A DNA stretch of 55,282 nucleotides from a virus (Duplodnaviria > Caudoviricetes). This document shows positions 3,736 through 50,124 of this stretch, piece after piece (the stretch's first letter is position 1; the number at the start of each line of letters is the position of its first letter). A program made the translations under genes and the position numbers. The notes below the pieces were generated by a model. That model saw nothing but the letters and a program-made list of their open reading frames with translations. It was not told where the DNA came from and did no database searches. The stretch spans positions 1-55,282 of IMG/VR virus record IMGVR_UViG_3300008120_000334. One strand, written 5' to 3'.

Positions 3736-4200
3736 ATGAATAAGCCAACTTGTATAATCACGATAGGAATGGGCGGAGCTGGTAAAACAACCGTTTTAAA
3801 CCGCCTTTTTCCAAATGTCACCATTAACGATTGCGACAAATGGAAAGTTTCACACCCTGAATACGACCCAAAAAGACCCGAACTTGTACATGAATGGTCA
3901 ACGATTCAGCAAGAACGTGAGCGGTTTCAACTACTTGCAAAAGGCGAAACTTTCGCTATTGACTCAACAGGAAAAAATATTGAAAAAGTCGCCCGTTGGA
4001 TTAATGACGCAAAATTGGCAGGTTTCAATGTCCACGTTCTTTATGTTCGTGTAAAAGTTCAAACCGCTTTAGCCCGTAACGCTAAAAGAACACGTGTCGT
4101 GCCTTTAGAGGTGATTTTAGAGGCCGCTGGTATGGTTGAGACTGCTTACAGTGTTTTAAGTGCTTATAGTGATTCAAACGAAGTTATTGAAAACGATTAA
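3736..4200 (+). CDS. P-loop kinase (AAA_33 / zeta-toxin-like)
   Basis: Walker A GMGGAGKTT, IDSTG Walker-B-like motif, ALARNAKRTRVVP lid motif. Confidence 0.8.
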   Translation: MNKPTCIITIGMGGAGKTTVLNRLFPNVTINDCDKWKVSHPEYDPKRPELVHEWSTIQQERERFQLLAKGETFAIDSTGKNIEKVARWINDAKLAGFNVHVLYVRVKVQTALARNAKRTRVVPLEVILEAAGMVETAYSVLSAYSDSNEVIEND

Positions 4201-5175: not shown

Positions 5176-5508
5176 ATGAAATTTCACTTAGTTTTCGCCC
5201 AAAACACAAAAAGCCCATATTACGTAGGAGATGATAGATTGTTTTCTCTATGGAAGGCTTCAGAAAACATTCTTCGGAATATGGATAAAAATTTCCGTTC
5301 CGCAAAATTTGAAATCCCGCAATTTAGACTTGATAAACCTACTGGAAAATCAATAGAAGGGTTTGTTATCGAATGTAGCGACATAGTAGCATTGTCGGTT
5401 GCGTTTGGTGAAATTGCAAAAATGATAAGTATAGACGCTACTGTAAAGTTCCCTGTTGAAATTCACCCAGAAGGCTTGACAGACACTTACTCAAGATTTT
5501 TAATATGA
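5176..5508 (+). CDS. Hypothetical protein
   Basis: First ORF after the promoter. Confidence 0.65.
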   Translation: MKFHLVFAQNTKSPYYVGDDRLFSLWKASENILRNMDKNFRSAKFEIPQFRLDKPTGKSIEGFVIECSDIVALSVAFGEIAKMISIDATVKFPVEIHPEGLTDTYSRFLI

Positions 5509-7313: not shown

Positions 7314-7790
7314 CTACTGCCACTTCACCACCAAATCCACGCGCTCACGTTCAACCTTGGCGTAATCGCGTATATTCTTTACTTCGCAGCCCATCATTCG
7401 AGCAGTAGTTTCAAGGTCGTACTTATGAACATTTAGGCAGATATGAGCAAAAGTTTTCCGACCAATCTTGGAAGAAAGCCCAATGCTGATACCTGCCATT
7501 TGTTCGAGTACCTTTAGGCGTTCATTGAACTTTACGGGGTGCATAGCAGGAAGCCCCGAAACCTGCTTTTTATTGCGTCGTTGACCCTTAAAAGTGGCTT
7601 CAATCTGTCCTCCGTAATCTGAAATTATTTTTATCGGTATTGGGTGCATTTTTTGCTCAATGGTGGATAAGTGTTCGTCAAAAGTTTTTTTTCGGTTTTT
7701 GATAAGCCAAACGTAGCCGTCAATCACTTTAAAGTCTTCCTTGGTTAGTTCCAGATAATCCCCAATGCGCGTACCCCGTGTGATTCTTGA
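7314..7790 (-). pseudogene. 5'-truncated tyrosine recombinase (integrase catalytic domain only)
   Basis: The frame extends upstream of the GTG to GTRIGD (box I Arg) and then hits a stop with no ATG; SSKIGRKTFA...MMGC...DYAKV box II; arm- and core-binding domains are absent. Confidence 0.75.
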
Positions 7791-7877
7791 AACCGAGCAT
7801 TTCCGACACCTCCTGTTGGGTCAAATTGGCCTGTTTTCTAAGTTTTTTTAAATTTTCTCCTATTTTCATAGTAACAA

Positions 7878-11558: not shown

Positions 11559-11911
11559 ATGATTTACATTGGAATAGACCCAGGAGTTAACACAGGCGTT
11601 GCAGTCTGGAACTCCGAAACAAAAAACTTTTACTGCATTGAATCTATGACCATACTTGATGCAATGTACATTGTCAATGACCAACATATCGGCTGCAAAA
11701 TAAATGTAATCATTGAAGATGCCAGACAAAGAAAATGGTTTGGAAACAGTGGTAAAGAAGTTCTGCAAGGTGCAGGAAGTATAAAAAGAGACTGCCAAAT
11801 ATGGCAGGAGTTCTTAGAAGCCAACGAAATTACCCACTATTGGGTTGCGGTTACACAGGCAAAACCAATGAGCATGGTCGCGATGCCGCGATGCTTGTAT
11901 TTAAACGATGA
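11559..11911 (+). pseudogene. RuvC-like Holliday junction resolvase with an internal deletion/frameshift near 11849
   Basis: IGIDPG...IIE N-terminus; the expected C-terminus GYTGKTNEHGRDAAMLVFKR* is in the -1 frame (11849-11911) and its TGA overlaps the next ATG. Confidence 0.75.
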
Positions 11912-12342
11912 AACTAAAAACCCTTGGCAGCGTTAAAAAAGGTCAGCTTTCTATCTACAAAAGAGACAAGTTTCTGACAGCCCTGCAAGACTACGAAGGG
12001 TGTATAGTTGAGGTGATTATCCGAAAGAAAACTAAGGGTCGTAGTCTTCAAGCAAATAGGTACTATTGGGGTGTCGCACTGGATATTGTCAAAGACGGAC
12101 TAAGGGAGGAACACGGCAATCGGTACGGTTTGGAAGAGGCTCACGAAGAGGTTAAGAAAAACCTCAACGGCTTTGAAGTACTTGACCTTGAAAACCTGAA
12201 GGTTGAAGTTGTACCAGAATCAACGGCTGATTTGCCGAGCGAAGAATTTGAAGCCTTAATGGAAGATTTACGCAGGTGGGCTTACGAGTTTTTGAAGGTT
12301 ACAATTCCCCTGCCGAATGAAATTGAAGTATTGAATTTTTAA
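11908..12342 (+). CDS. NinB/YbcN-like recombination protein
   Basis: RSLQANRYYWG...STADL...EF..LME...WA...IPLP pattern. Confidence 0.7.
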   Translation: MKLKTLGSVKKGQLSIYKRDKFLTALQDYEGCIVEVIIRKKTKGRSLQANRYYWGVALDIVKDGLREEHGNRYGLEEAHEEVKKNLNGFEVLDLENLKVEVVPESTADLPSEEFEALMEDLRRWAYEFLKVTIPLPNEIEVLNF

Positions 12343-12894: not shown

Positions 12895-13296
12895 ATGAAA
12901 AACGAAATAATGCCACCCATGCCAAAACAGGCAGAAATTACAGAGGATTTTGTAGATAGTATTTTGGCTATCAACGCAGCCGCAGGATTTAACATTTTTC
13001 TCATTGACGAACTCGAAAGAAAGCACAACGTTAAGTACAATTTCAAGCTAAAAAAGTACGGCAATATGTTTCGAGACGAACTTCTAAAATCGGTCAATCA
13101 AGTATGGCTAAAAGGTGGGGAGTTTGATTCAGAACAAATCTCACAACAACAAATGGATACCTACCTAATGACGGAGCAAATGTTTAAGATGTCGTTGGAA
13201 GTGTCTCGGAAACTATCGCCAGAGCAAACCGAAAAGTTTAAGCTGTCTTTTCAAAACCTTCTTTATTCCTTCAAACTTGAATTACCTACTGTATAA
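12895..13296 (+). CDS. Hypothetical protein
   Basis: ORF coupled to the HU gene. Confidence 0.65.
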   Translation: MKNEIMPPMPKQAEITEDFVDSILAINAAAGFNIFLIDELERKHNVKYNFKLKKYGNMFRDELLKSVNQVWLKGGEFDSEQISQQQMDTYLMTEQMFKMSLEVSRKLSPEQTEKFKLSFQNLLYSFKLELPTV

Positions 13297-13829
13297 TGAC
13301 AAAACAAGACATAATATCCAACGTAGCAAAGGCTACTAATCTCCCATTAGACGACTCACGCAATGCAATAGAGGCGTTCATAGAAACTGTTAAGCAAAGT
13401 TTGGCCGAAGGTCACGCGGTTATTATTAGAGGGTTTGGCAGCTTCTCACCTTTGTACCGCCCAGCCAAAAAGGGTCGAAACATTAAAAAGAACCTATCTA
13501 TTGACATACCCGAAACGACTGTACCCAAGTTCAAAGCGTCTGACGAATTTAAGGCAGCTTTGGGCGGCGCGCCCATCAAACGCAAGGTAAAAAAGTCAAC
13601 AAAACTAACCCATACAGAGGCTAAACCACTTGCCAACGTAGGCGACAATTACAAAACCAACAGAGGCAATTTGTGGCAGGTTTACGACGTGCAGCCTGTT
13701 TTGGTTAAAGGTAAAGTAACTGATTATGAGTACAAGATTTGGCGTAAAGCAGCGCGGCGGGTTTCCAGACGGAAAGTGACAAATAGTACAATTTTTGGTA
13801 ATGTCGTTAAAAAGGAGGCAAAGCAATGA
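13296..13829 (+). CDS. HU/IHF-family DNA-binding protein with C-terminal basic extension
   Basis: MTKQDIISNVA...IIRGFGSF...KKGRN...IDIP...PKFKAS. Confidence 0.9.
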   Translation: MTKQDIISNVAKATNLPLDDSRNAIEAFIETVKQSLAEGHAVIIRGFGSFSPLYRPAKKGRNIKKNLSIDIPETTVPKFKASDEFKAALGGAPIKRKVKKSTKLTHTEAKPLANVGDNYKTNRGNLWQVYDVQPVLVKGKVTDYEYKIWRKAARRVSRRKVTNSTIFGNVVKKEAKQ

Positions 13830-14217: not shown

Positions 14218-14249
14218 TTTGGTATTTAAAATAACATTTACTAATTTTG
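14218..14249 (+). promoter_or_regulatory. Promoter of the long plus-strand accessory operon
   Basis: TTTG 14218-14221 and TAATTTTG 14242-14249. Confidence 0.65.
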
Positions 14250-16639: not shown

Positions 16640-16852
16640 ATGGCAATACAAATCAAAAACAAAGCGGCACTTGCGCATAGGCTTGACCAGCAAACCTATA
16701 AAGGCGAGATTAGGAAAGACCCAGATTATTACATTACCTGCGTGGTGATGGACGAAAGAAAACCTTTTACAATCACTTTTAACCCTGTGCTTCTTGATAA
16801 GAAGATTGAGAAGTACGGTGATAGGTTGATTTTACCGAATGTAACCAAATGA
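16640..16852 (+). CDS. Hypothetical protein
   Basis: ORF in the operon. Confidence 0.6.
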   Translation: MAIQIKNKAALAHRLDQQTYKGEIRKDPDYYITCVVMDERKPFTITFNPVLLDKKIEKYGDRLILPNVTK

Positions 16853-16887
16853 GCGCAAACCCCAAAAAACTAACCGCCACGTTCAGG

Positions 16888-16917
16888 ATAATGCCTTGAG
16901 CGGCTTTGTAAAACTCA
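16888..16917 (+). repeat. 30-bp leader element, copy 1
   Basis: ATAATGCCTTGAGCGGCTTTGTAAAACTCA, identical to 49748-49777. Confidence 0.9.
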
Positions 16918-16925
16918 TAATTAAA

Positions 16926-17117
16926 ATGCTTAAAAAATTAGAAACATTAAAAGCAGAACTTGAGAAGATGTATGCAGTTGAACTTCTTGAGTATTACGAC
17001 AAAAATCATTTGTCTGGCGATAATAAAACCAGAAGTGAAACAAGACAAGAACAACTGCAATACTCAATTCGATTAATTAACGAAATAAATGAAACAGCTC
17101 AGAAAGTTGTAAACTAA
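16926..17117 (+). CDS. Hypothetical helical protein (start ATG 16926)
   Basis: ATG lies 8 nt after the 30-bp element, the same spacing as at copy 2. Confidence 0.65.
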   Translation: MLKKLETLKAELEKMYAVELLEYYDKNHLSGDNKTRSETRQEQLQYSIRLINEINETAQKVVN

Positions 17118-17166
17118 TTTTTGTGGCTCGTAGGATGCTCGGTGTTAGGTGTAGTGGAATCGTATT

Positions 17167-17289
17167 TAATTTGCGATTGCCGATGGCGGGGACTTAGAAC
17201 CAAAAACGTTCGGCTTAACAACAAAATTTAATAAGATGTCAGAAATATTAACAACAACCGAAACCCCCGCTATTGGCAATGTGCTGTTA
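17167..17289. repeat. attC-like site 1 (degenerate left core, TAAT)
   Basis: ATTGCCGATGGCGGGG / CCCCGCTATTGGCAAT arms; GTTA at 17286. Confidence 0.7.
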
Positions 17290-17577
17290 TGCGATGTTTA
17301 TCCTAATTGGCTATACATTGAGCTGATTGGAAATAAGTTGCTAATGCACATTTTGAAAGAATACGGCACATTGAATAAAGAAGATTACGAAAGAGTATAT
17401 AAGAGTTATGTTCTTCCATACTTTACAACATGGGACAATTTCAGTTGCTGTATGAATGGAGATGTTCAATACAGCCCCGTTGTCTTGGCTTGGTATGCAG
17501 AAAAAATAGGAGTTAAGCCAACTTATCCTTTAAGAGTAATGAGGCGGGTTGCTTGGTCGCTACGAAATATCGCATAA
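17236..17577 (+). CDS. Cassette 1 hypothetical protein
   Basis: Starts inside site 1; stop is the TAA of the next TAAC. Confidence 0.7.
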   Translation: MSEILTTTETPAIGNVLLCDVYPNWLYIELIGNKLLMHILKEYGTLNKEDYERVYKSYVLPYFTTWDNFSCCMNGDVQYSPVVLAWYAEKIGVKPTYPLRVMRRVAWSLRNIA

Positions 17578-17700
17578 CGATAGGTATTTGCGATGGTTGG
17601 ATATTTGAAAATATAAAGATGAATAACTTGATACAGACTGATTTATTTACTACTGCTGATGTGCCAACGTCAAGCCCAACTATTGCAAATACCCATGTTA
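17575..17700. repeat. attC-like site 2
   Basis: TAAC..GGTATTTGCGATGGTTGG / CCAACTATTGCAAATACC..GTTA. Confidence 0.85.
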
Positions 17701-18296
17701 GCTGTAGTTGTGGGCAATCGGGGAAATATAAAACAATAGTAATAGACCCACCGTGGAAGTATGGCGTTTGGGGTAAAAGAAATGAAATAACATCTTCCTA
17801 TAAAAAGTTTAAAGTAAATATCGAAACCCCATTGCCATACCCTTATATGACGCTGGATGAAATAAAAGCATTGCCTATAAAGGATTTGGCTGATGAAAAT
17901 TGCGAATTATATGTATGGACTACGCAAAAATATTTGCCTGTAACTTTTGAACTTATAGACCATTGGGGGTTTAAATATTGTACAACGTTAAGCTGGTGTA
18001 AAAAGCCAAGAGGTACGGGTCAAGGTGGTGTTTATTGCCCGACTACTGAATTTATTGTACATGGAAGAATAGGTAATATGCCAAAAGTTAAAAGGATTGA
18101 TAGTACATGGTTTGAGGTAAAAAGACCGCATAATAGCCACAGTACAAAACCTGAATTTTTCCAAGATATGATTGAGACAGTTTCAGATGCTCCACGACTT
18201 GAAATGTTTGCAAGGCGTGAACGTGAAGGGTGGGACGTTTTCGGTAACGAGGTGTCAAACTCTATAAAATTAAACGCTGGTAACAATTACAGCTAA
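17619..18296 (+). CDS. Cassette 2: MT-A70-family adenine methyltransferase (likely start ATG 17619)
   Basis: YKTIVIDPPW, LYVWTT, WGFKY, HSTKP, RLEMFAR, GWDVFGNE. Confidence 0.92.
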   Translation: MNNLIQTDLFTTADVPTSSPTIANTHVSCSCGQSGKYKTIVIDPPWKYGVWGKRNEITSSYKKFKVNIETPLPYPYMTLDEIKALPIKDLADENCELYVWTTQKYLPVTFELIDHWGFKYCTTLSWCKKPRGTGQGGVYCPTTEFIVHGRIGNMPKVKRIDSTWFEVKRPHNSHSTKPEFFQDMIETVSDAPRLEMFARREREGWDVFGNEVSNSIKLNAGNNYS

Positions 18297-18417
18297 CGGT
18301 TTGCAGGTATATTTAGTGCCGAATTTGAAAAACAAAATTATATGACAACACAAAACTTGATTGAAAAACTAAACTCCGATTATACACGATGCTCGGCATT
18401 GAATATACCTGCTGTTA
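18294..18417. repeat. attC-like site 3
   Basis: TAAC..GCAGGTATATTTAGTGCCGA / TCGGCATTGAATATACCTGC..GTTA. Confidence 0.85.
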
Positions 18418-18584
18418 GCAGCCGTTTATTCTATCCGATTTATGAAAGTGTAATTGGAGATGAACCGCACCTTAAAGAAGGTGAATTTATTGAAGCCATA
18501 GGTGATGACTTTATGGCGAGGATATTTGGAGTTGGCAAGTTTAGGGATAAAGCCGAAAAGTTCTTTGTTTTAAATGGCTGCTAA
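18342..18584 (+). CDS. Cassette 3 hypothetical protein
   Basis: Starts inside site 3; stop in the next TAAC. Confidence 0.65.
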   Translation: MTTQNLIEKLNSDYTRCSALNIPAVSSRLFYPIYESVIGDEPHLKEGEFIEAIGDDFMARIFGVGKFRDKAEKFFVLNGC

Positions 18585-18706
18585 CGTTAAAACGCTTGGC
18601 GAAGAAGCGGACTTTGAAGCACAAACTTTCAGTTTAGCACAAATGCCAATAGAAAGCACGAATGTTGAATTTAGCACTAAACCCGCTTTTTGCCAAGCGT
18701 GTGTTA
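18582..18706. repeat. attC-like site 4
   Basis: TAAC..ACGCTTGGCGAAGAAGCGG / CCGCTTTTTGCCAAGCGT..GTTA. Confidence 0.85.
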
Positions 18707-18751
18707 GCACCAGTACTTTTTTAATTAGTAACAATTTAAAACAATAATAAA

Positions 18752-19000
18752 ATGCAAGAATTTAATTTAGAACATCAGTATCAACTTTATCTACAAAGAA
18801 TGGCTTTGTCAGAAAGCACAATGCACCCACAACAAAAAATCCAACTACGCCAAACTTTTTTTGGTGCAAGTGGTCAAATGCTAATTCTTTTAAGAGACGA
18901 ATTATCAAAACTTGAAGAAGAAAAAGCAATGGAAACTTTACAAGATTTAATTAACCAAGTAGGCAATTTCTTTTTAGCCGAAACAAACAAAATGAATTAA
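18752..19000 (+). CDS. Cassette 4 hypothetical protein A
   Basis: ORF with A-rich leader. Confidence 0.7.
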   Translation: MQEFNLEHQYQLYLQRMALSESTMHPQQKIQLRQTFFGASGQMLILLRDELSKLEEEKAMETLQDLINQVGNFFLAETNKMN

Positions 19001-19001
19001 T

Positions 19002-19259
19002 ATGACACCAAAGCAATTTAAAGAAGCAAATGTAACTTTTGCAAAAGACCAACCCGAATATCAGCCATTACCTGCTTTTAGAAGTGATAGCCCACAAGGT
19101 GAAGTAATTACTTGCTGGAACTTATCATTCAAAGAACGATTAAGGATTTTGTTTAAAGGCGAAATTTGGCTTTGTCTCTTAACATTCAATAAACCATTAA
19201 CACCTACTTTTATAACCACTCAAAAATCAGAGGTATTGTCTGACGGTAGCGGTTCGTAG
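19002..19259 (+). CDS. Cassette 4 hypothetical protein B
   Basis: DQPEYQPLPA...ITCW.LSFKERL.IL..G.IWL phage-type small protein; stop overlaps the cassette end. Confidence 0.75.
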   Translation: MTPKQFKEANVTFAKDQPEYQPLPAFRSDSPQGEVITCWNLSFKERLRILFKGEIWLCLLTFNKPLTPTFITTQKSEVLSDGSGS

Positions 19260-19268
19260 TATTGGTGC

Positions 19269-19393
19269 TAACGTTCGAGTATTGGCGAAGAAGCGGACTT
19301 ATACCATTAAAGTTGATACGAAGCACCAATGTTGATGCTACTACAAATGTTCATACGAAGCACTAAAACCGCTTTTTTGTCAATACTTTGTTA
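19269..19393. repeat. attC-like site 5
   Basis: TAAC..AGTATTGGCGAAGAAGCGG / CCGCTTTTTTGTCAATACT..GTTA. Confidence 0.85.
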
Positions 19394-19472
19394 TGCGTTC
19401 GCCTTTTTTTCTGTTGATTTTCAGTTAGTTAGAAACTAATTTAAAAATAAATGAAAAATACTTTGAAAAAAG

Positions 19473-19503
19473 TTTGCAGTTATCAAAATAGAACCTATAT
19501 TTG
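19473..19503 (+). promoter_or_regulatory. Cassette-internal promoter (cassette 5)
   Basis: TTTG 19473-19476 and TATATTTG 19496-19503. Confidence 0.65.
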
Positions 19504-19533
19504 TACTCAGATAACAAATAAAAAATAAACAAA

Positions 19534-19710
19534 ATGACAACGATAATTTTTAAAAACGAAAAGAAAGCAAAAGTTTACGAAGTTAGAGCAGCAAAACCAT
19601 TTCATATTTATTCTGCTGGCGAGTTAATCAAAAGAGTAAAAACTGACAAAATTGAAAACCTAAACGAAAACTACGCAACTGATGAAATCACAGTTACAGA
19701 AATTAAATAA
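19534..19710 (+). CDS. Cassette 5 hypothetical 58-aa protein (not in ORF track)
   Basis: ATG 19534 after the promoter, TAA 19708-19710. Confidence 0.6.
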   Translation: MTTIIFKNEKKAKVYEVRAAKPFHIYSAGELIKRVKTDKIENLNENYATDEITVTEIK

Positions 19711-19894
19711 TCAACTCCAAAAAATCGAAACAGAGCTTTCTAAATGTAGAGGCTCTGTTTTAGAGGATGGATGGCAAACACAGCGTTATGCTAAAAAGAT
19801 GCGTAAATGGGATTATTACGCAATAGAAAAAATGAAAATTTTACAACAAATAGAAGATTATGAAAATAAAATTTGTATCAATGAGGAAGTATAA
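19682..19894 (+). CDS. Cassette 5 coiled-coil hypothetical protein
   Basis: ORF overlapping its neighbours in the operon. Confidence 0.6.
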   Translation: MKSQLQKLNNQLQKIETELSKCRGSVLEDGWQTQRYAKKMRKWDYYAIEKMKILQQIEDYENKICINEEV

Positions 19895-20102
19895 AATGTG
19901 TATAGGTTGGAAATATCGCCTAAAAAACTTTTTTACTATTGAGAAATATTGGTCTGGCAAAATAATTCAATTCAGAATTTTATGTGAATATGGTTTTGAT
20001 ATTGATTTGCGGGATGGTGGTTTTAAATTAACCGATTTACTTAATGAGAAAGAAAAAAAGCGTTTTTATTTAGGTATGTGGTTAAGGAAAAATCGGAACT
20101 AA
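19860..20102 (+). CDS. Cassette 5 hypothetical protein (start uncertain)
   Basis: TAATG-coupled to the next gene. Confidence 0.55.
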   Translation: MKIKFVSMRKYKMCIGWKYRLKNFFTIEKYWSGKIIQFRILCEYGFDIDLRDGGFKLTDLLNEKEKKRFYLGMWLRKNRN

Positions 20103-20269
20103 TGAAAAAGAAAAAAGAAAATAGAGGAGGCAAACGCCCTCTCTCTGGTCGTAAAAAAGCGGACCACGAAACTAAAACTATTGCATTTCGTGTTCGTGTC
20201 GAATTTGTCGAACCGATTAAAAAGATGGTAAAAGATTATGTTTCTGAGCGTCTGCAAGGTGACGCATAA
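20102..20269 (+). CDS. Cassette 5 small DNA-binding protein (RGGKRxxSGRK hook plus RHH-like segment)
   Basis: RGGKRPLSGRKK...TKTIAFRV; stop in TAAC. Confidence 0.7.
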   Translation: MKKKKENRGGKRPLSGRKKADHETKTIAFRVRVEFVEPIKKMVKDYVSERLQGDA

Positions 20270-20392
20270 CGGTTTGCAGCTATATTTAGTTGCGGACTTA
20301 GAAGCACAAAACTTGAATTATTCACAAAATTAAATTAGAAAATATGAACTTGAATGAACCACAAAAACCGCAATTGAATATAGGTGCTGTTA
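20267..20392. repeat. attC-like site 6
   Basis: TAAC..GCAGCTATATTTAGTTGCGG / CCGCAATTGAATATAGGTGC..GTTA. Confidence 0.85.
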
Positions 20393-20544
20393 GCGGTAGT
20401 GCCACTCCGAACTTTTTAAAGGTTGCCGTTGATGAACTGCTAACCTACAGAACACCGAAAAAGATAATTGATTACATAGAAGCTGAAAAGATGAAATCAA
20501 TAATAGGGAACCCACCGTTTGATGTTTTTGGGCATTACCGCTAA
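20344..20544 (+). CDS. Cassette 6 hypothetical protein
   Basis: Starts inside site 6; stop in the next TAAC. Confidence 0.6.
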   Translation: MNLNEPQKPQLNIGAVSGSATPNFLKVAVDELLTYRTPKKIIDYIEAEKMKSIIGNPPFDVFGHYR

Positions 20545-20668
20545 CGGTTCAGGGCTTTGCGAAGGCAGGGCTAAATAGCACAAAAGTTTAAATTAATTAC
20601 AAATGTCAAATAGAAATACAAAAGTTCAAAATCAGCACCAAAGCCCTGCTTTTGCAAAGCCCTTGTTA
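20542..20668. repeat. attC-like site 7
   Basis: TAAC..AGGGCTTTGCGAAGGCAGGGCT / AGCCCTGCTTTTGCAAAGCCCT..GTTA. Confidence 0.88.
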
Positions 20669-21100
20669 CCTGCCGTTTTTTCTATTAGCAGTAAGGTTTG
20701 TCCAATATGTAAAACAGAAAAAGACTTGTCAAATTTTGGTAAATACTTTTCTAAAGAACGCCAAAAATACAGAGTTCAAAACTATTGCAAAAGTTGTGAA
20801 AAATCAGAAAAGAAAAGGCGTTCAGCAGAATATTACGAAGCTAATAAAGAAGCAAGAAAACAATATCAAAAAGAACACAGGGCAAACCCAAACAACAAAG
20901 AAAAGTTAAAAGCAGTATCGCAAAAATTCAAAATAAAATATCGTGAGGAATTGCAAGACTGCTATGTTAGAGATAGGCTGACACAAGATAATAAAATACC
21001 AAATTATGTTTCAAGGGAATTGCCTGAAATAGTAGAAGCGAAAAGATTACAAATAAAAATTAAACGTAAAATAAAATCATTAAACAATGGCAAAAAATAA
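20603..21100 (+). CDS. Cassette 7 basic Zn-ribbon protein
   Basis: CPICKTEK..F...YCKSC; starts inside site 7. Confidence 0.7.
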   Translation: MSNRNTKVQNQHQSPAFAKPLLPAVFSISSKVCPICKTEKDLSNFGKYFSKERQKYRVQNYCKSCEKSEKKRRSAEYYEANKEARKQYQKEHRANPNNKEKLKAVSQKFKIKYREELQDCYVRDRLTQDNKIPNYVSRELPEIVEAKRLQIKIKRKIKSLNNGKK

Positions 21101-21356
21101 ATTATCAGACTTAAACGACCATCTTTTTATGGCATTAGAAAGATTAAATGACGAGGAATTGACAACCGAACAAATTGAATCTGAAAGTAAAAGAGCAGAA
21201 GCAATTATAGGTGTTGCAAATCAAATTATAGGAACTGCTAAAATTACACTTGACGCTATGAAATTAGTTTCAAATGGAAATTTAGACACAACTGAATTAC
21301 CTGAAAATTTTGGATTTAAACGACTGGTTTCGGATTCTACGCAAAATGGCAGGTAA
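21087..21356 (+). CDS. Cassette 7 helical phage protein
   Basis: KNKLSDLNDHLFMALERLNDE...RAEAI; stop in TAAC. Confidence 0.75.
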   Translation: MAKNKLSDLNDHLFMALERLNDEELTTEQIESESKRAEAIIGVANQIIGTAKITLDAMKLVSNGNLDTTELPENFGFKRLVSDSTQNGR

Positions 21357-21477
21357 CGTTGAAGCATTGGCGAAGGCAGGGAATAGTAGCACAACTGCCG
21401 AACCAAGTACAAAAGTTAAATAGTGCTACCATTGTTGAAAGTAGAACGTCTGCCCTGCTTTTGCCAATGCAATGTTA
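21354..21477. repeat. attC-like site 8
   Basis: TAAC..GCATTGGCGAAGGCAGGG / CCCTGCTTTTGCCAATGC..GTTA. Confidence 0.88.
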
Positions 21478-21498
21478 TAGGCAGCCTAATTTTAGGAT

Positions 21499-21903
21499 AT
21501 GGAATTTCAAATTATAATGGCTCACGGTGCTATGGGTGCTGATGCAAGCGACACAATGTTAGACACTTTTCTTCGTCAGTTTTCCCAAAAGCACCAAGAA
21601 GAAGGCGAATGGGCTGAAAAATATGGAACTGATTTAGAAACTGAAAAAGTAATGATGAAACGTTATTGCTGGTGCGAAAAAGAAGTTTGTCCATACTGCT
21701 TTGATTTAGAAGAAGAAAAGGTAACACAAGAATTGAAAGAAAAGTATGGAATGGAAGATGATAGAACAGCACCGAACTTTTGGTATAAGCCATTAGATTT
21801 TAAAGTGTGGTGGTATAAATACATTGGTCGTTCTGTCGAGGTTAATAAGCAATTGTCTGATGATGATTTTAAAAAGATGGTTGATGATTGTATGTCGTCA
21901 TAG
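21499..21903 (+). CDS. Cassette 8 Cys-containing hypothetical protein
   Basis: YCWCEKEVCPYC...PNFWYKP...WYKYIGRS; stop overlaps the cassette end. Confidence 0.75.
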   Translation: MEFQIIMAHGAMGADASDTMLDTFLRQFSQKHQEEGEWAEKYGTDLETEKVMMKRYCWCEKEVCPYCFDLEEEKVTQELKEKYGMEDDRTAPNFWYKPLDFKVWWYKYIGRSVEVNKQLSDDDFKKMVDDCMSS

Positions 21904-21911
21904 GTTGCCTA

Positions 21912-22036
21912 TAACGTACAGGTGTTTAAGATGAAGTGGACTTTGAAAAACGTCAGCTCGTTTACTTACTGATGTTAAATAGGATTCTAAAGGTGCAATT
22001 AATTCCGCCCACCACTTTATATTAAACACCATGTTG
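21912..22036. repeat. attC-like site 9
   Basis: TAAC..GGTGTTTAAGATGAAGTGG / CCACTTTATATTAAACACC..GTTG. Confidence 0.8.
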
Positions 22037-22136
22037 TGTGCTGCTGTTTTTATGTCTGTCAAAACCTATATATTGCCAATTTTTAGTTATACTTGTTATC
22101 AAATCAATAAAGTCTTAAACTTAAAACAAAAGAAAC

Positions 22137-22688
22137 ATGAAGGCATTAGACGAGAAGTTATTATATCTCGCATCTGAAAATACGTTGGTCAATTTAAAAG
22201 CCGATGCTACGGAGTTGTTAAAAAGTTATCACGAAACAGAAACAATAATTACAAACAAATCAACGTCTTTGTTGCAGTTTTTATTCCCTGTCTTTGTTGG
22301 TATTTTTGGCTATATTTTAGTTGAAATACAAACTAAAAGCAACCCGAAACTATTTTGGTTTGCTTGTATTGAAGAAATTGTGATTTTCTTGTCATGTTAT
22401 TATTTGTTTGAGTTACTTTATTTAAAGAAAGTCGCTCTAAGCGGGGTGAAACCTTCAAATATGTTACATGATGATATTGTCAAAAACGACGAAAATGGAA
22501 ATACTTTGCAGTATTTAAGATTACGTGTTTTTGGGTTACAAAATGCAATAACCGCTTGTGAAGCAAGTCACGATAAAAGAAAAACAAACTTCAAAAATGC
22601 TTTAAACATTTTAATGATAGGCACTTCTGTTGTTGTCCTTATTTTTTCGTTAGTCCTGATTGGTCAAGGCCTCTTTCTTCATAAGTAG
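22137..22688 (+). CDS. Cassette 9 three-TM membrane protein
   Basis: Two N-half hydrophobic helices and one C-terminal TM. Confidence 0.75.
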   Translation: MKALDEKLLYLASENTLVNLKADATELLKSYHETETIITNKSTSLLQFLFPVFVGIFGYILVEIQTKSNPKLFWFACIEEIVIFLSCYYLFELLYLKKVALSGVKPSNMLHDDIVKNDENGNTLQYLRLRVFGLQNAITACEASHDKRKTNFKNALNILMIGTSVVVLIFSLVLIGQGLFLHK

Positions 22689-22800
22689 TCGTCTCTCTCA
22701 TGGGTTGTCTAACAGGTTGTTGAGCGGGAGTAACAGTTTGTTGTTGTTGGCTTTGTTGTCCTTGCTCTTGGCTGTTATTGTTGTCGTTATTGTTGGTCAT
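22639..22800 (-). CDS. Cassette 9 convergent 53-aa N/Q-rich peptide (not in ORF track)
   Basis: MTNNNDNNNSQEQGQQSQQQQTVTPAQQPVRQPMRETTTYEERGLDQSGLTKK*. Confidence 0.55.
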   Translation of the reverse strand: MTNNNDNNNSQEQGQQSQQQQTVTPAQQPVRQPMRETTTYEERGLDQSGLTKK

Positions 22801-22857
22801 ATTTTTCTATTATTTAAATATCTAAATCTTACGGATGTGTTTTTTTACAGTTGCACA

Positions 22858-22982
22858 CAACGTTTTGCATATTGGAGCAGTAGGGGATTTGGAACACGAA
22901 AGTTTCTATACCCACTACACTTCATTAGATGCAATACCGTTCAATTTACCACTTAAACCCCTATTGCTCTAATATGCTGTTA
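22858..22982. repeat. attC-like site 10
   Basis: CAAC..GCATATTGGAGCAGTAGGGG / CCCCTATTGCTCTAATATGC..GTTA. Confidence 0.85.
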
Positions 22983-23075
22983 TGCTCTCGTTGCGGATTT
23001 TTAGCAGTAAACTTCAATCGGAGCAATGTTTTTTGTTCTTTTTTGTAGGTGGTAAAAAATATTTTTGATAAATAG

Positions 23076-23106
23076 TTTGTAAATACAAAATAAATACTTA
23101 CCTTTG
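23076..23106 (+). promoter_or_regulatory. Cassette-internal promoter (cassette 10)
   Basis: TTTG 23076-23079 and TACCTTTG 23099-23106. Confidence 0.65.
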
Positions 23107-23148
23107 AAGTGTTGTTAGCAATGAAGCTACAATCTAAAATTAAAAACA

Positions 23149-23346
23149 ATGGAAAAGTTAATCACAAATGCAAAAAGTCAATTTGAGAAATTCGGTCAAG
23201 TTAGAATCACTATTTATCCTAATCGTAGTGTAAATGATAGCTACGATATAGTTGAGAAGACAATGGATTCAGCTATTGAATCAATATCACATTTATACCA
23301 ATCGGTAACAGACGACCTTAGTGTTTCACACGCAAATGCAATGTAA
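23149..23346 (+). CDS. Cassette 10 hypothetical protein
   Basis: First ORF after the promoter. Confidence 0.65.
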   Translation: MEKLITNAKSQFEKFGQVRITIYPNRSVNDSYDIVEKTMDSAIESISHLYQSVTDDLSVSHANAM

Positions 23347-23510
23347 TGAGCAACACGAAAAAAGTAACGATAAGCCTTACTCCTGAACAACAGGATAAGG
23401 CTCGTTCTTTATCAAAAGATTTATTTGGTAAAGAAAATATATCTGGACTAATCGGATTTTTGATTGAGCGTTGGGAAAAAGAACAAAAAACTTCCACAAA
23501 TGTCAAATAG
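23346..23510 (+). CDS. Cassette 10 ribbon-helix-helix-like 54-aa protein (not in ORF track)
   Basis: MSNTKKVTISLTPEQQDKARSLSKDLFGKENISGLIGFLIE; TAATG coupling. Confidence 0.65.
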   Translation: MSNTKKVTISLTPEQQDKARSLSKDLFGKENISGLIGFLIERWEKEQKTSTNVK

Positions 23511-23534
23511 AAGCGGTCACGTAGCAATGGAGCA

Positions 23535-23557
23535 TAACGAGTTTATTTGCGAAACTC
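23535..23557. repeat. Terminal half-site of the array (attI-like candidate)
   Basis: TAAC followed only by GAGTTT-N7-AAACTC; no long hairpin and no GTT partner. Confidence 0.5.
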
Positions 23558-23583
23558 TACCCCCGTCAACTACTTAATAATCA

Positions 23584-23808
23584 ATGAAAATACAGGTTAC
23601 ATACTACGCAAAATGGCAGATAAAAGATGCTACTTGGTATAAGTGGACTACCTGTAAAAAGTTGATAAATTGCAAAACAGGGCGTGAGATTAAAAAGACC
23701 ACAAAGGGCGCACAGGCGGGGTATTATATTGAAGGAGAGTTTGTAAAAATTTCCGACCTCAAAAATAGAGTAGAACTAATACCTTTTAAGGAGAAATTGC
23801 CATTTTAA
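23584..23808 (+). CDS. Hypothetical protein
   Basis: ORF following the array. Confidence 0.65.
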   Translation: MKIQVTYYAKWQIKDATWYKWTTCKKLINCKTGREIKKTTKGAQAGYYIEGEFVKISDLKNRVELIPFKEKLPF

Positions 23809-28329: not shown

Positions 28330-31300
28330 TGTCTGTACCCGTTTATGATTATCTTGCCGCCTACCGCAATGCCTGATGACTGGTCAACGTCTATCGTCAT
28401 TGTTGCCCATTTTGCCAGTGATGTGTCACTAATTACCGCAGGTGTTGCAGCCGTTGAACTCTTTGTCTCCGTGTTGTCTAAGGTTAGTTTTGTACTTAGA
28501 ATCGAAACCCCTTCTTCGTTAATGTCAACCGTGAAGACCGCCCCAGAACTTTGCGCTGTTTTCACCGCTAAAAACACCTCTGTTACGGTAAAAGCATAGG
28601 GCATATAAAACGTTTCTTTGCCGTTGCCCGTCGTTATACCCGTCGTTCCGTCGCTAAATGCCACTTCTATACTCTCAAGCGTTTTGTTCTTTGCATCCTC
28701 AACGTAGGCTGTTGTGGCTATTTGCGTGGTGTTTGTCCCTGATGTTGCCGTTGGGGCTGTTGGAACTCCTGTAAACGCAGGATTTGCCAATGTTGCGTAG
28801 CTTGCTATCGTGGCATAAGCCCCTGTGCCTAATGTGCCACCGCTGCCAATGTTTAATGTACTTCCATCCGTTCCAGATAAAGTCAGGCTATTGGCTACGT
28901 TGAACACTTTTGCATCTGTAATGCCTAATGTTCCCGTGGTGGATGATATAGTAAGGCCATTGTAGGTTTTACCCGTTAAGGCTGTTGCTATTTTGCCATC
29001 TGCAATGGCAGTTCCATCCCAAACCCCAGCTCCAATAGTTCCGAGCGTCGTAATATTGCTCGACCCAGCCCAGGTAGATATTGCGGTATTTTCTGCCGCA
29101 CCTAAACCAATGAGTGTTTTTACTTGCGACCCACTTAGAGCCTCAACTATGCCAGTTGCAGCCGTAGCGCGGCCTAATATTGTACCAGAGGCTACGTTTG
29201 CCATCTTAGCCAATGTTACCGAACTATTTGCAATTGTAGCCGAAAACGTACCCGTCCCCGAGCCTGTCACGTCACCAATAAGTGTGATAGTCTGGTCGCC
29301 TGTGTTTGTGCCACTACTCGATCCGCTAAACGTTCCTGATTGGGTTGCCAATGTTCCAAGCCCTAAATTAGTTCTTGCTTGTGCAGCCGTAGTTGCGCCC
29401 GTTCCTCCGTTGGCTATTGCCACCGTTCCCGAAACATTTGAAGCAATACCTGTCGTATTTTGGTTGAAAGTAGGCCACGTAAAAGACCCCGTACTAAAAT
29501 CCCCCGATTGAGGTACGCCCAAGGCAGGGGTCGTTAGCACGGGGCTTGTCGCCAGTACCACATTGCCGCTACCCGTTGTCGTGGCCGCCGATACCGTACC
29601 GCTACCGTTGGCCGTTAAGATACCATTCACAGACCCCGCCCCGCCTTTATTGGCAGGCACTACGTTGTTATAGGTTAAGGTTGTTGACCCTATCACGTCG
29701 CCCGTGTGGGTTGCGTTGCTCACCTTTGCGCTATTAGCCACTACTGCGCTATTAGCCGCTACTGCCGCGTCAAAGTCTGTAATATTGCTTGCAGTATGAT
29801 TGTGGGCCGTGGGCGTTCTTGCGTCGCTTAGTCTTGTGTCGTTACCTTTTACAACCTCACCCGTTGCCGCGTTACCCGTTGCCGCTACATCCAAAGCCGA
29901 AGCTGTACCCAAAGTGGGTTTATTTAAAATTTGGGCATCACCACTTACCGCGTTCCAGTCGGCATTTACGTTGACTTCCGCCCCCGAAGCGATGCCCGCT
30001 AACTTGCTTTTTTCGGCTGCTGTAAAATTGTTCTGACTCAAAGCCCATCCTGAAACTTTGCGAACGTACAAAGTAGTGTCCGACTTTGGTAGGTAAGCTG
30101 CTAAATCTGCTGACACCAAATAAGAGCCAATTGGCTGATAAGTGCTTGCGGCCGTTGCACTCGTTAAGTATGGACTTAACGCACTACTCGTAATATACCC
30201 ACTTGGATTAGTTGAATTATAGGGCGTAAAACCAAGTGCAGTAGTTACTTGACTGGAATTTATCGAAGTTAGATAAGAGCCTTTAGGCTGATACAACCCC
30301 GCCGCTGTGGTCTTTTGCAGAAAGAGTGTTGTGTCTATCGCTGTACCGCTACCACTAATTACAATATTGCCAGACCCCAATAACGACGCGCCATTGACCG
30401 TTTTAATCGTTGTGCCACTCGTTAAAATTTGCTGATAAGTGCTTGCAGCGGTCGAAGTGGTTAAGTACGGGCTTAGTGCCGAACTTGTAATATACCCACT
30501 CGGGTTGGACGCATCATACGGAGTAAAACCAAGCGCGGTCGTTACTTGTGACGAATTAATTGAAGTCAAGTAGCTACCCTTTGGTTGATACAAACCCGCT
30601 GCCGTGGTTTTTCTAAGCAGCCCCGTCGTGTCGGCAATATTTAGCTTTGCCGCTAAATCACTAACCAGATTGGTTACAGTGCTTTGCGCCTGTACGCCCG
30701 TGTGAGTTGAACGGTCACGCAATTGGGCATCCGTGCTGTTGGCCGTTGCCCCCGAAGCAATACCCGCCAATTTGCTTTTTTCGGCTGTGGTGTAGCTATT
30801 TTGGCTTAAAGCCCACCCCGAAACCTTACGCACATAAAGCGTTGTGTCAATTGACGTTCCACCACCACCAGAACCGTCCCCAGGGTCGCCCTTATCGCCC
30901 TTCATTACTTGAGCAAGTACCGTATTAGTCGTGATACTTGTTGCCGAAATGGTCATATTAATGGTAGCATCTACGCCAGTATTAACACTGCCATTGTTAA
31001 ACCCATTTTGTGAAGCTGATACAATCAAGGTTAAAGGTGAAATGCGTCTAACGCCCAAGATTGAATCATCAACTGCAATTTCCAAAGTATTCGACCCTTG
31101 GTAACGCCTCATAGTTGCCGAACTTAAAGGCATCCGAAAAGCCCTAACGTTATTAGTCGCCACAATGCCGCCCGTTGACTTTTTGGCCACCTCCTGACGA
31201 TTAATTGACACGCTAATATCTTGCAGTCTATTCACGTCATAAGCATTGTCAAAGACCAGTAAGGCCGTAAAGCTATCGCCCTGCTTTACTGTTATAGGGC

Positions 31301-49747: not shown

Positions 49748-49777
49748 ATAATGCCTTGAGCGGCTTTGTAAAACTCA
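49748..49777 (+). repeat. 30-bp leader element, copy 2
   Basis: Identical to 16888-16917. Confidence 0.9.
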
Positions 49778-49785
49778 ATTTGATT

Positions 49786-50124
49786 ATGGTTGAAAACCAA
49801 AATTTTGGACAGGCAATTGAAGCCTTAAAAGAAGGCAAGAAAGTTGCAAGACAAGGATGGAATGGTAAAGGGATGTTTATCTTTGAAAGACCTGCCGATG
49901 AATTAGAAGTAGGCTTTATTATTGAAAAAGTAAAGTCATTGCCACAATCGGTAAAGGACTTTTTTAAGGCAAAAGATGCAAAGGAAACTCCAAGCGAACA
50001 AGGATTAGCCAAAGTGAAATTTGGAAACTACTTGTGTATGTATACTGCCGATGGGTCTATCGTAAATGGCTGGCTTGCAAGTCAGACAGATATACTCTCA
50101 AACGACTGGTGTATTCTTGACTAA
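49786..50124 (+). CDS. DUF2829 / Tad2-like anti-defence sponge family protein (start ATG 49786)
   Basis: [27 protein letters not shown]...[14 protein letters not shown] family signature. Confidence 0.85.

Follow-up and report, generated by a model that had tools for sequence, protein, structure and literature searches.

A probable integron-like array of mobile cassettes with inverted gene polarity in the early operon of a siphovirus-like phage

Introduction

The closest described relatives of the system reported here are the gene cassettes of integrons, such as those of class 1 integrons and the repeats of Vibrio cholerae (VCR). Their recombination sites, attC, are imperfect inverted repeats of 57-141 bp bounded by an inverse core (RYYYAAC) and a core (GTTRRRY), and the extra bases of their recombined (bottom) strand sit on its 3' arm, facing the arm that is cleaved. 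Most known integrons come from Proteobacteria. Here we analyse a complete viral record, IMG/VR IMGVR_UViG_3300008120_000334 (55,282 bases, referred to throughout as the window), whose early region carries ten related hairpin sites among small genes. Our interpretation, to which we assign a probability of roughly 0.7, is that positions 17156-23539 form an integron-like array of ten mobile cassettes within the early operon, in which the sites act in folded form, a host Xer/IntI-like recombinase acts on them and the genes are inverted relative to the sites. The likeness to integrons extends to imperfect palindromes with AAC/GTT cores whose structure is conserved over their sequence, to cassette starts that complement the inverse core before their own site, to the placement of bacterial arrays beside a tyrosine recombinase, and to crossover at the AAC core of the better-folding strand.

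Integrase-free clusters of attC-like sites, termed clusters of attC sites lacking integrases (CALINs), have been described in phages. The portion of Qi et al. 2023 (PMC9892861) consulted here reports 17 phage CALINs, virulent phages and methyltransferase cassettes among them, and two predicted sites in Polaribacter phage P12002L 'with divergent directions'. The present array is alike in kind, and that portion of the paper describes neither this site family, nor its polarity relative to genes, nor the Bacteroidota recombinase. For the bacterial side, the consulted part of the IntegronFinder 2.0 report (bioRxiv 2022.02.28.482270) gives In0 elements and one complete integron, in Salinibacter, for Bacteroidetes proper, and places further integrons in the Chlorobi and Ignavibacteriae of the wider Bacteroidetes/Chlorobi group.

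Two other systems invite comparison. The promoter-stem-loop cassettes (PeSLs) of T4-type phages are promoter and terminator motifs thought to act via homologous recombination. According to the consulted parts of PMC2839356 and PMC4122927 they are repeated structured elements between genes that delimit small accessory genes in plastic regions and mark where related phages differ by insertions, deletions and replacements, as our sites do. Unlike PeSLs, however, the sites have recombinase-type cores, variable stems that covary, flanks that pair across genes, and relatives beside a tyrosine recombinase. Elements of the IS200/IS605 type are likewise strand-specific and hairpin-dependent, with boundaries beside a short conserved motif; the system described here differs from them in having a tyrosine recombinase as its associated enzyme, in the absence of any HUH transposase among the genes found, and in the arrangement of its sites in tandem arrays. 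In the full-text literature, with subscription journals outside the coverage, we found no inverted cassette polarity in phages, no account of the extent of this site family, and no report of site arrays in Bacteroidota associated with a recombinase that is without the IntI insert. As far as this search goes, phage CALINs were already known (Qi 2023), and the inverted polarity, the extent of the family and the non-IntI recombinase are new.

A family of folded sites in phages

An earlier sequence-only reading of the array had recognised nine intact sites of the form (T/C)AACG...TGTT on the plus (coding) strand. These nine sites, S1 to S9 (Table 1), are confirmed, with TAACG in eight and CAACG in S9, and they span 122-125 nt from AAC to GTT, close to the length of a VCR. 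A tenth site, S0, has the same hairpin with a 5' core decayed to TAATT; a contig from metagenome run X6 has an intact TAACG at this position (loose end at 17157). A covariance model built on the sites, R1, was used for all site searches in the window, in phages and in bacteria. Over the 55,282 bases it finds exactly ten sites, between 17156 and 22994, all on the plus strand with scores of 88.6-130.8 bits, and the next-best matches are the reverse strands of the same ten sites at 27 bits or less. With ten R1-called sites within 5.8 kb of an integrase-free 55-kb genome, the locus falls within the definition of a CALIN.

The family reaches well beyond the window. A scan of 81 loci with R1 added 51 sites (E <= 0.001) in nine phage loci, Flavobacterium phage 6H included, all of them on the early-gene strand. 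Polaribacter phage P12002L has seven more, each likewise on the strand of the genes. One of these seven, at 29996-30067, is identical to the published P12002L_attC1; the IntI1-active attC2 of the same phage lies near 29.2 kb on the opposite strand, and R1 does not detect it. Across 61 phage sites the 5' core is TAACG in 51, CAACG in five and another sequence in five, and the 3' core is TGTTA in 53, TGTTG in six and AGTTA in two. The AAC-to-GTT span is 121-128 nt in 46 of these sites, with a short class of 66-90 nt (12 sites), two sites of 117 nt and one of 135 nt.

In each site TAACG pairs with TGTTA to form a basal helix; beyond it, 3-5 bases are left unpaired on the 5' side only, and a main stem of some 20-22 bp then closes a loop of roughly 70 nt. 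The 24 modelled pairs of S1-S9 give 216 cells, comprising 176 Watson-Crick pairs, 26 G.T pairs on the plus strand, two A.C, four other combinations and eight gaps. G.T thus makes up 26 of the 32 cells that are neither Watson-Crick nor gaps, in agreement with the initial observation that arm mismatches are mostly G.T on the coding strand; the two A.C cells would be G.T on the minus strand. Among 14 sequences, ten from the window and four from phage 6H, 15 of the 24 stem pairs have changed on both sides, and 90.5% of cells pair compared with 63.8% in shuffled controls, none of 500 shuffles reaching 90.5%. These compensatory changes indicate selection for structure. As in attC, the sites therefore combine an inverse-core/core inverted repeat with a structure conserved over variable sequence, and they bear the cassette signature described below.

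The two strands of the sites are not equivalent. When both were folded with DNA parameters, the plus strand was the more stable in all nine intact sites (marginally so in S3, -26.2 versus -26.0) and in 52 of the 61 phage sites (mean -15.6 versus -13.6 kcal/mol; Wilcoxon p = 3e-8). The strand matching the model's plus orientation is also the more stable in 18 of 22 bacterial sites (-18.7 versus -17.4, p = 0.002), even though it is antisense to the genes there, in a comparison biased by the fact that the strand was assigned by a model trained on phage plus strands. Orientation toward the neighbouring recombinase, described below, is a criterion independent of that assignment. The loops are strand-specific as well. 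The motif AGCAC occurs 30 times against 2.5 expected, and its reverse complement once. It recurs in 3-4 imperfect repeats of about 18 nt per loop (S3, S4, S6 and S7; for example 18612-18690), is common to phage and bacterial sites (the latter in loci L151, L105 and L106), and the repeats may provide binding sites for an accessory domain. Because the same folding bias occurs in bacteria antisense to the genes, together with strand-specific loop motifs, the asymmetry belongs to the site and not to the transcript.

Cassette signature, crossover position and the mobile unit

The flanks of neighbouring sites pair with each other across the intervening genes. In the window, the 12 bases after the GTT of one site complement the 12 bases before the AAC of the next in all eight consecutive pairs from S1 to S9, with 11, 11, 11, 8, 11, 11, 11 and 10 of 12 positions paired against 1-8 for all other combinations, and the S0 to S1 interval fits the pattern (10/15). 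Complementarity of at least 10/15 is found in 30 of 51 consecutive site pairs of the phage loci, compared with a mean of 5.2/15 and a 99th percentile of 10 for non-consecutive pairs (n = 3609), and in bacterial arrays all 20 consecutive site pairs show 7-11 paired positions of 12. Substitutions beside the cores covary across a gene, the GTTG of S8 going with the CAAC of S9. Unlike in integrons, the pairing extends over 12-15 nt and includes a conserved plus-strand G.T wobble at a fixed position; the 30 well-paired flank pairs contain 330 Watson-Crick, 39 G.T and 10 A.C cells. This pairing is the integron cassette signature, the trace of a circular one-hairpin cassette inserted by a single crossover at the core. 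It also defines the right-hand limit of the array, since the sequence that precedes 23535 pairs with the bases 3' of S9 and thereby marks the lone core at 23535-23539 as the array end. No large hairpin lies behind this core, the 161 nt of 23520-23680 folding no better than shuffles (z = 0.10).

To locate the crossover, the hairpin and 200 nt on either side were compared for 1830 site pairs. Where the hairpin and one flank are alike, the shared flank is the downstream one in four of four pairs (L003_5290/7678, L005_4611/L007_5695, L005_5598/L007_4309 and L005_4922/S4 of the window), and where the upstream 200 nt are alike (score >= 118) and the downstream sequence is not, the hairpins are unrelated in five of five. 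In alignments of L005 with L007, L011 with L012 and L005 with the window, identity starts or stops within or beside TAACG. The hairpin thus travels with the downstream gene in other genomes, the co-segregation anticipated from the sequence alone. A duplication also occurs within a single phage: in Flavobacterium phage 6H (L003) one hairpin and at least 200 nt downstream occur twice, at 5278-5430 and 7666-7814, and the second copy has CCACA in place of the 5' core TAACG.

Contigs of four metagenome runs, aligned over 16800-23700, carry rearrangements that respect the same boundaries. Stretches without contig cover in some runs were left uninterpreted, and joints with short sides or uncertain content (18586|20568, 19491|20113, 20309|20598, 20570|20642, 23003|23512, 23065|23476 and 20271|23535) were left out of the evidence. 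One X4 contig has the joint 17574|18294, flanked by 312 and 158 perfectly matching letters with five shared at the joint, which removes exactly the S1 hairpin and the methyltransferase gene and keeps the S2 hairpin. A second X4 contig lacks the S5 and S6 cassettes (20266|21354, side 136), and an X7 contig places the S7 cassette after the right-hand core (23534->21354, side 73). The lone right-hand core is also used in the short-sided joints 21910|23534 (S8, side 24) and 22858|23536 (S9, side 30) and, less surely, in 20271|23535. The well-supported skip joints all run from 5' core to 5' core and retain the hairpin of the downstream site. As these joints fall inside the 5' TAACG, the mobile unit is the hairpin plus its downstream gene or genes, bounded by 5' cores, and the proposal to this effect made from the letters alone is upheld by both the phage homology breakpoints and the cassette-precise deletions.

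An alternative is that the sites have canonical polarity, with crossover at the G|TT of the 3' core, the hairpin belonging to the upstream gene and the minus strand being recombined. The few breakpoints at the 3' core and the extra unpaired bases on the 3' arm of the minus strand, where canonical bottom strands have them, would fit this arrangement. It is contradicted by the co-segregation of hairpins with downstream flanks and their independence of upstream flanks, by the skip joints and by the better folding of the plus strand in most phage sites, and we consider it improbable.

A second alternative dispenses with a site-specific enzyme and treats the sites as boundary sequences, comparable to PeSLs, between modules that are shuffled by the phage's general recombination. 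Genes for NinB/Orf-like, Holliday-junction-resolvase-like and HU-like proteins are present in the phage, an integrase is not, and PeSL-mediated shuffling is described for T4-type phages in the consulted parts of PMC2839356 and PMC4122927. However, the joints connect unlike hairpins through only 4-6 shared nucleotides, the compensatory stem variation reflects selection for structure, and neither flank-to-flank pairing nor recombinase-adjacent arrays in bacteria would be expected of boundary sequences. The repeats also lack the early promoter and terminator-like stem-loop that characterise each PeSL, having stems of 20-22 bp and loops of 70 nt. We therefore judge general recombination an unlikely substitute for site-specific crossover.

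In one further rearrangement, seen in contigs from X3 and X4, 21477, which ends an S7-like site, is connected via 11 other letters to 16882. Gene 16896-17117, which lies outside the array in the window, is thus headed by a site in some relatives.

Bacterial arrays and their recombinase

The same sites occur in bacterial chromosomes, with 1-13 R1 matches in each of five Bacteroidota genomes examined, which were chosen through loci with relatives of a phage early gene. At these chromosomal loci the adjoining genes run counter to the plus orientation of the model. In genome G001 a site lies 600 nt past the stop codon of a 475-aa tyrosine recombinase (PF13495 and PF00589); one small gene separates the two (L118, G001:C17), and a palindrome followed by GTTAGC, located before that gene, may be an attI. 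Among 28 recombinase loci with only 1.5 kb of flank, the recombinase gene is followed by a site in seven, oriented toward the recombinase in every case (the match in one of them, L134, is weak at E = 0.056). Extending the flanks revealed Bacteroidia arrays of 11 (L149, with some matches as weak as E = 0.08), seven (L151), three (L150), two (L153) and two (L152) sites, situated just downstream of a tyrosine recombinase gene that is co-directional with the cassettes, with the model's plus orientation always toward the recombinase.

The orientation of genes relative to sites separates the two settings. In bacterial arrays the ORF (open reading frame) is opposite to the model's plus orientation, gene first and site after, in 17 of 17 cassettes, these being the inter-site intervals with an ORF of at least 48 aa out of 20, the other three having no meaningful ORF. 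In phages, 49 of 50 cassettes are co-directional with their site. The sequence-only reading had held that the sites are inverted relative to the genes, by comparison with the canonical form reading TAACA...CGTTA on the gene strand. Both parts stand, the inversion within a single site family and the canonical form through the same-family arrays of bacteria.

The recombinases at these arrays resemble integron integrases without being IntI. Among NCBIfam models, TIGR02249 for integron integrases fits the G001 protein best, yet the 227 bits, obtained in two stretches, fall short of the cut-off of 265; the four full-length relatives taken from arrays reach 188-220 bits with it, with the insert skipped. 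Array recombinases do pass NF040815 (XerA / integron integrase; cut-off 220) with 221-243 bits, the four relatives giving 225-243, and among solved structures VchIntIA (2a3v, E = 2e-38) comes closest to the G001 protein. The consulted part of bioRxiv 2022.02.06.479319 treats the IntI-specific insert as the defining feature of integron integrases, and the array recombinases, which are without it, are therefore not IntI. Unlike integron integrases, they combine the missing insert with an N-terminal extension of 100-200 aa and a direction of transcription shared with their cassettes. A complete integron, with an intI bearing the additional domain, an attI and an array, was found neither in the window nor at the bacterial arrays. 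Of 401 genomes sampled from the class to which G001 belongs, 213 encode relatives of its recombinase (E <= 1e-50), a tally that describes a broad family rather than proven site partners and takes in one genome flagged unpublished, G099. In phage records, tblastn with an array recombinase returned only distant Xer-like integrases of Cellulophaga and Polaribacter phages, with 34-38% identity over two thirds of the query.

The adjacency of a tyrosine recombinase also bears on another conceivable mover of the units, an IS200/IS605 (HUH) transposase, which would act on single-strand hairpins and place them 3' of a short target, for instance TAA(C). The strand specificity, the hairpin at one end and boundaries 3' of a short conserved motif are reminiscent of that family. 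With no HUH/Y1 transposase in the window or beside the bacterial arrays examined, and a tyrosine recombinase as the array neighbour, we regard this as the least probable explanation, and a very unlikely one.

Single or paired sites also occur in the chromosomes of G001-G003 far from any recombinase (L105, L106, L109, L110, L112 and L116), among genes for RDD, NUDIX, SnoaL-like and small proteins of unknown function. These look like isolated cassettes that were inserted outside arrays.

Coupling of the sites to phage genes

Because phage genes lie on the strand opposite to the bacterial arrangement, the site stands upstream of the gene, is transcribed within the phage operon and supplies the start codon. 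In comparison with integrons, the phage gene is thus downstream of its site, on the equivalent of the bottom strand, and the site holds both its start codon and the stop codon of the previous gene. At S1, S2, S3, S5, S6 and S7 the upstream ORF terminates on the TAA of the 5' core (at S1 this is gene 17236-17577), with a TAG located 10 nt before the core at S4 and S8. The downstream ORF starts from a loop ATG at S0, S1, S2, S3 (a short ORF only), S5 and S6, and the ATG that serves several phage ORFs sits within one loop motif, CACAAATGT. At S1 the loop ATG opens the methyltransferase ORF, whose first ~26 codons lie inside the site; it is the sole in-frame ATG seen between S1 and the MT-A70 domain. 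Bacteroidetes-type promoter motifs are present at 14218, 19473 and 23076, so that just two of the ten cassettes (19473, 23076) contain one, in both cases outside the hairpin. The phage has no integrase, attI or Pc, in contrast to integrons, and expression of the cassettes plausibly comes from phage promoters rather than an integron Pc, as the absence of an integrase and of an integron platform from the window would suggest.

A further alternative is that the hairpins are RNA elements of the early phage mRNA, serving processing, translational coupling or stabilisation, with the cassette pattern as a by-product. All sites lie on the coding strand, where their wobble pairs are G.U-compatible, and both the upstream stop in the 5' core and the in-frame loop ATG fit such a role. 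Against it, the same family with the same strand bias is antisense to genes in bacterial arrays and clusters there beside a tyrosine recombinase, the flanks of consecutive sites pair across whole genes, differences in gene content begin and end inside the 5' core, and a scan of the whole window against Rfam at E <= 1 gave no family, only one weak unrelated match. As a replacement for the cassette interpretation an RNA function is unlikely; an added RNA role of the hairpins in the phage is possible.

Table 1. Positions of the sites, associated genes and array ends in the window, and of two bacterial arrays.
Feature	Position	Strand	Remarks
S0	17156..17301	+	left end of array; ATG 17236 in loop; R1 107.7 bits
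S1	17564..17711	+	TAACG 17575-17579, GTT 17697; deletion joint 17574|18294
MT-A70 family DNA methyltransferase	17619..18296	+	PF05063 E = 4.8e-21 from residue 37; PHROG 359
S2	18283..18428	+	loop ATG 18342 opens 80-aa ORF
S3	18571..18717	+	loop with four ~18-nt AGCAC repeats; cassette ORFs 18752-19000 and 19002-19259; matches a Flavobacterium phage 6H site
S4	19258..19405	+	promoter-like motif 19473-19503; four small ORFs (19534-20269); hairpin and downstream region common to window and L005
S5	20256..20403	+	loop ATG 20344 opens 66-aa ORF; joint 20266|21354
S6	20531..20679	+	loop ATG 20603 opens 165-aa endonuclease-like ORF; cassette also has 21087-21356
S7	21343..21489	+	cassette gene 21499-21903; joints at 21354
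S8	21901..22048	+	cassette gene 22137-22688; joint 21910|23534
S9 (CAACG core)	22847..22994	+	promoter-like motif 23076-23106; ORFs 23149-23346 and 23346-23510; joint 22858|23536
Right-hand array end	23523..23539	+	flank pairing with S9 3' flank, then lone TAACG core 23535-23539
Bacterial array L149	G240:C18:1-8923
Bacterial array L151	G048:C56:91138-108000

Homologues of one cassette gene, 21499-21903, were site-free in seven of seven loci in viral contigs, and the gene thus exists outside cassettes too.

A model for cassette exchange and the evidence against it

In the model that we favour, a cassette would begin inside the 5' core, at TAA|CG, continue through the variable stem of about 22 bp, the AGCAC loop of about 70 nt, the 3' core TGTTA and the gene or genes, and end at the core TAA of the next site, which usually doubles as a stop codon. 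The sites would act as folded single-stranded DNA, and the coding (plus) strand, which folds better and contains the AAC crossover core, would be the equivalent of the integron 'bottom' strand. A host Xer/IntI-like tyrosine recombinase would excise, insert and reorder the phage cassettes during infection. The anatomy of the sites, their covariation, the cassette signature, the crossover position, the contrast in orientation and the recombinase adjacency in bacteria are shown directly by the sequences. We infer the action of a host enzyme because the phage itself has no integrase and the recombinase is known through its adjacency to arrays in bacteria; the single-stranded mechanism and the identity of the strand that is cut are likewise deductions from the folding and crossover data. 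For the proposal, made from the sequence, that the coding strand is the recombinogenic one speak its better folding and the crossover in its AAC core; the unpaired bases on its 5' arm, unlike those of canonical bottom strands, and the few 3'-core breakpoints speak against a simple analogy. The assignment is consistent with the data, and we infer it on that footing. Overall, the system is integron-like in its working and departs from the canonical form in two features: its recombinase is without the IntI insert, and its extrahelical bases lie on the other arm.

Besides the bias in the bacterial folding comparison, several observations weigh against this model. The 3-5 unpaired nucleotides lie on the 5' arm of the plus strand, between TAACG and the main stem, where the crossovers map, and not on the 3' arm of the recombined strand as in attC. 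Independent events are few, most of the breakpoints between phages coming from one locus pair, L005/L007, and the joints come from assembled contigs, not from reads. Breakpoints do not all respect the 5' core: in L005_4922/L011_907 the hairpins differ and identity resumes at TGTTA, in L006_587/L007_6818 a nearly identical hairpin has different sequence on both sides, and the 21477->16882 junction lies at the 3' core. No tyrosine recombinase or other integrase was detected in the window (60 ORFs compared with PHROGs, 56 with Pfam). On the enzyme side, the stretch 178-246 of IntI4, within which the IntI-specific insert lies, is matched by just 26 residues of the G001 protein, and another relative aligns end to end, ungapped, with XerA/XerC-like chains. 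Finally, P12002L_attC1, the one site of the family tested in the consulted portion of PMC9892861 and the subject of the only published test we found, showed no verified recombination with class 1 IntI1.

The broader meaning is a well-defined attC-like site family that is common in phages and chromosomes of Bacteroidota, set against the near-absence reported for integrons in Bacteroidetes. Its bacterial arrays adjoin a recombinase without the feature that defines integron integrases, and its phages use the opposite gene polarity. The inverted cassettes suggest a route by which such phages could exchange accessory genes, and if the model is true it would account for the assembly and exchange of plastic accessory regions holding methyltransferases, nucleases and small genes of unknown function. 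It would also offer a natural experiment on how the orientation of attC relates to transcription, cassette mobility and expression, and would make the origin of cassettes testable, because polarity tells phage cassettes from bacterial ones. We advance more tentatively, at a little short of even odds, a wider proposal: Bacteroidota and their phages would share a cassette-exchange system that standard integron tools have missed, run by an insert-less Xer-like recombinase, with mirror-image cassettes in phages whose hairpin serves as the translation start. In that event, accessory genes and counter-defence genes, methyltransferases for example, could be reshuffled between co-infecting phages by the enzyme of the host, and cassettes exchanged between phage and host would lie antisense, and silent, in the other party's array.

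Genomic setting of the array

The window is the whole IMG/VR record, with a completeness rating of 100%, and it belongs to a siphovirus-like phage of Bacteroidota. The minus strand at about 24.6-48.7 kb and 52.2-55.2 kb encodes terminase, portal, protease, major head, tape measure and tail genes, and the plus strand at about 1-24.6 kb carries replication and recombination genes and many small genes. Relatives of the one early gene compared occur in contigs labelled as Bacteroidota, namely Segetibacter, Sphingobacterium, Flavobacteriales, Flavihumibacter and Nibribacter. A tRNA scan of the window returned no tRNA, and GC skew tracks the coding strand and is uninformative on the direction of replication.

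The NinB/Orf-like and Holliday-junction-resolvase-like genes lie at 11559-12342. Near them, an ORF at 13296-13829 (plus strand) encodes an HU-type DNA-binding protein (Bac_DNA_binding, E = 1.4e-23) with a C-terminal extension, which could be a helper of folding or recombination at the sites.

The large terminase (52174-54927, minus strand; 917 aa) is interrupted, with LAGLIDADG_3 and Hom_end matches at residues ~333-402 between the ATPase and nuclease domains, a layout that suggests an intein or a homing-endonuclease insertion. A counter-defence gene lies outside the cassette array, as an ORF with a Tad2-like (Thoeris anti-defence 2) domain at 49756-50124 (plus strand, E = 2.9e-23), and the early region contains a small Zeta-toxin/AAA_33-like kinase ORF at 3736-4200 (plus strand, E about 1e-10).

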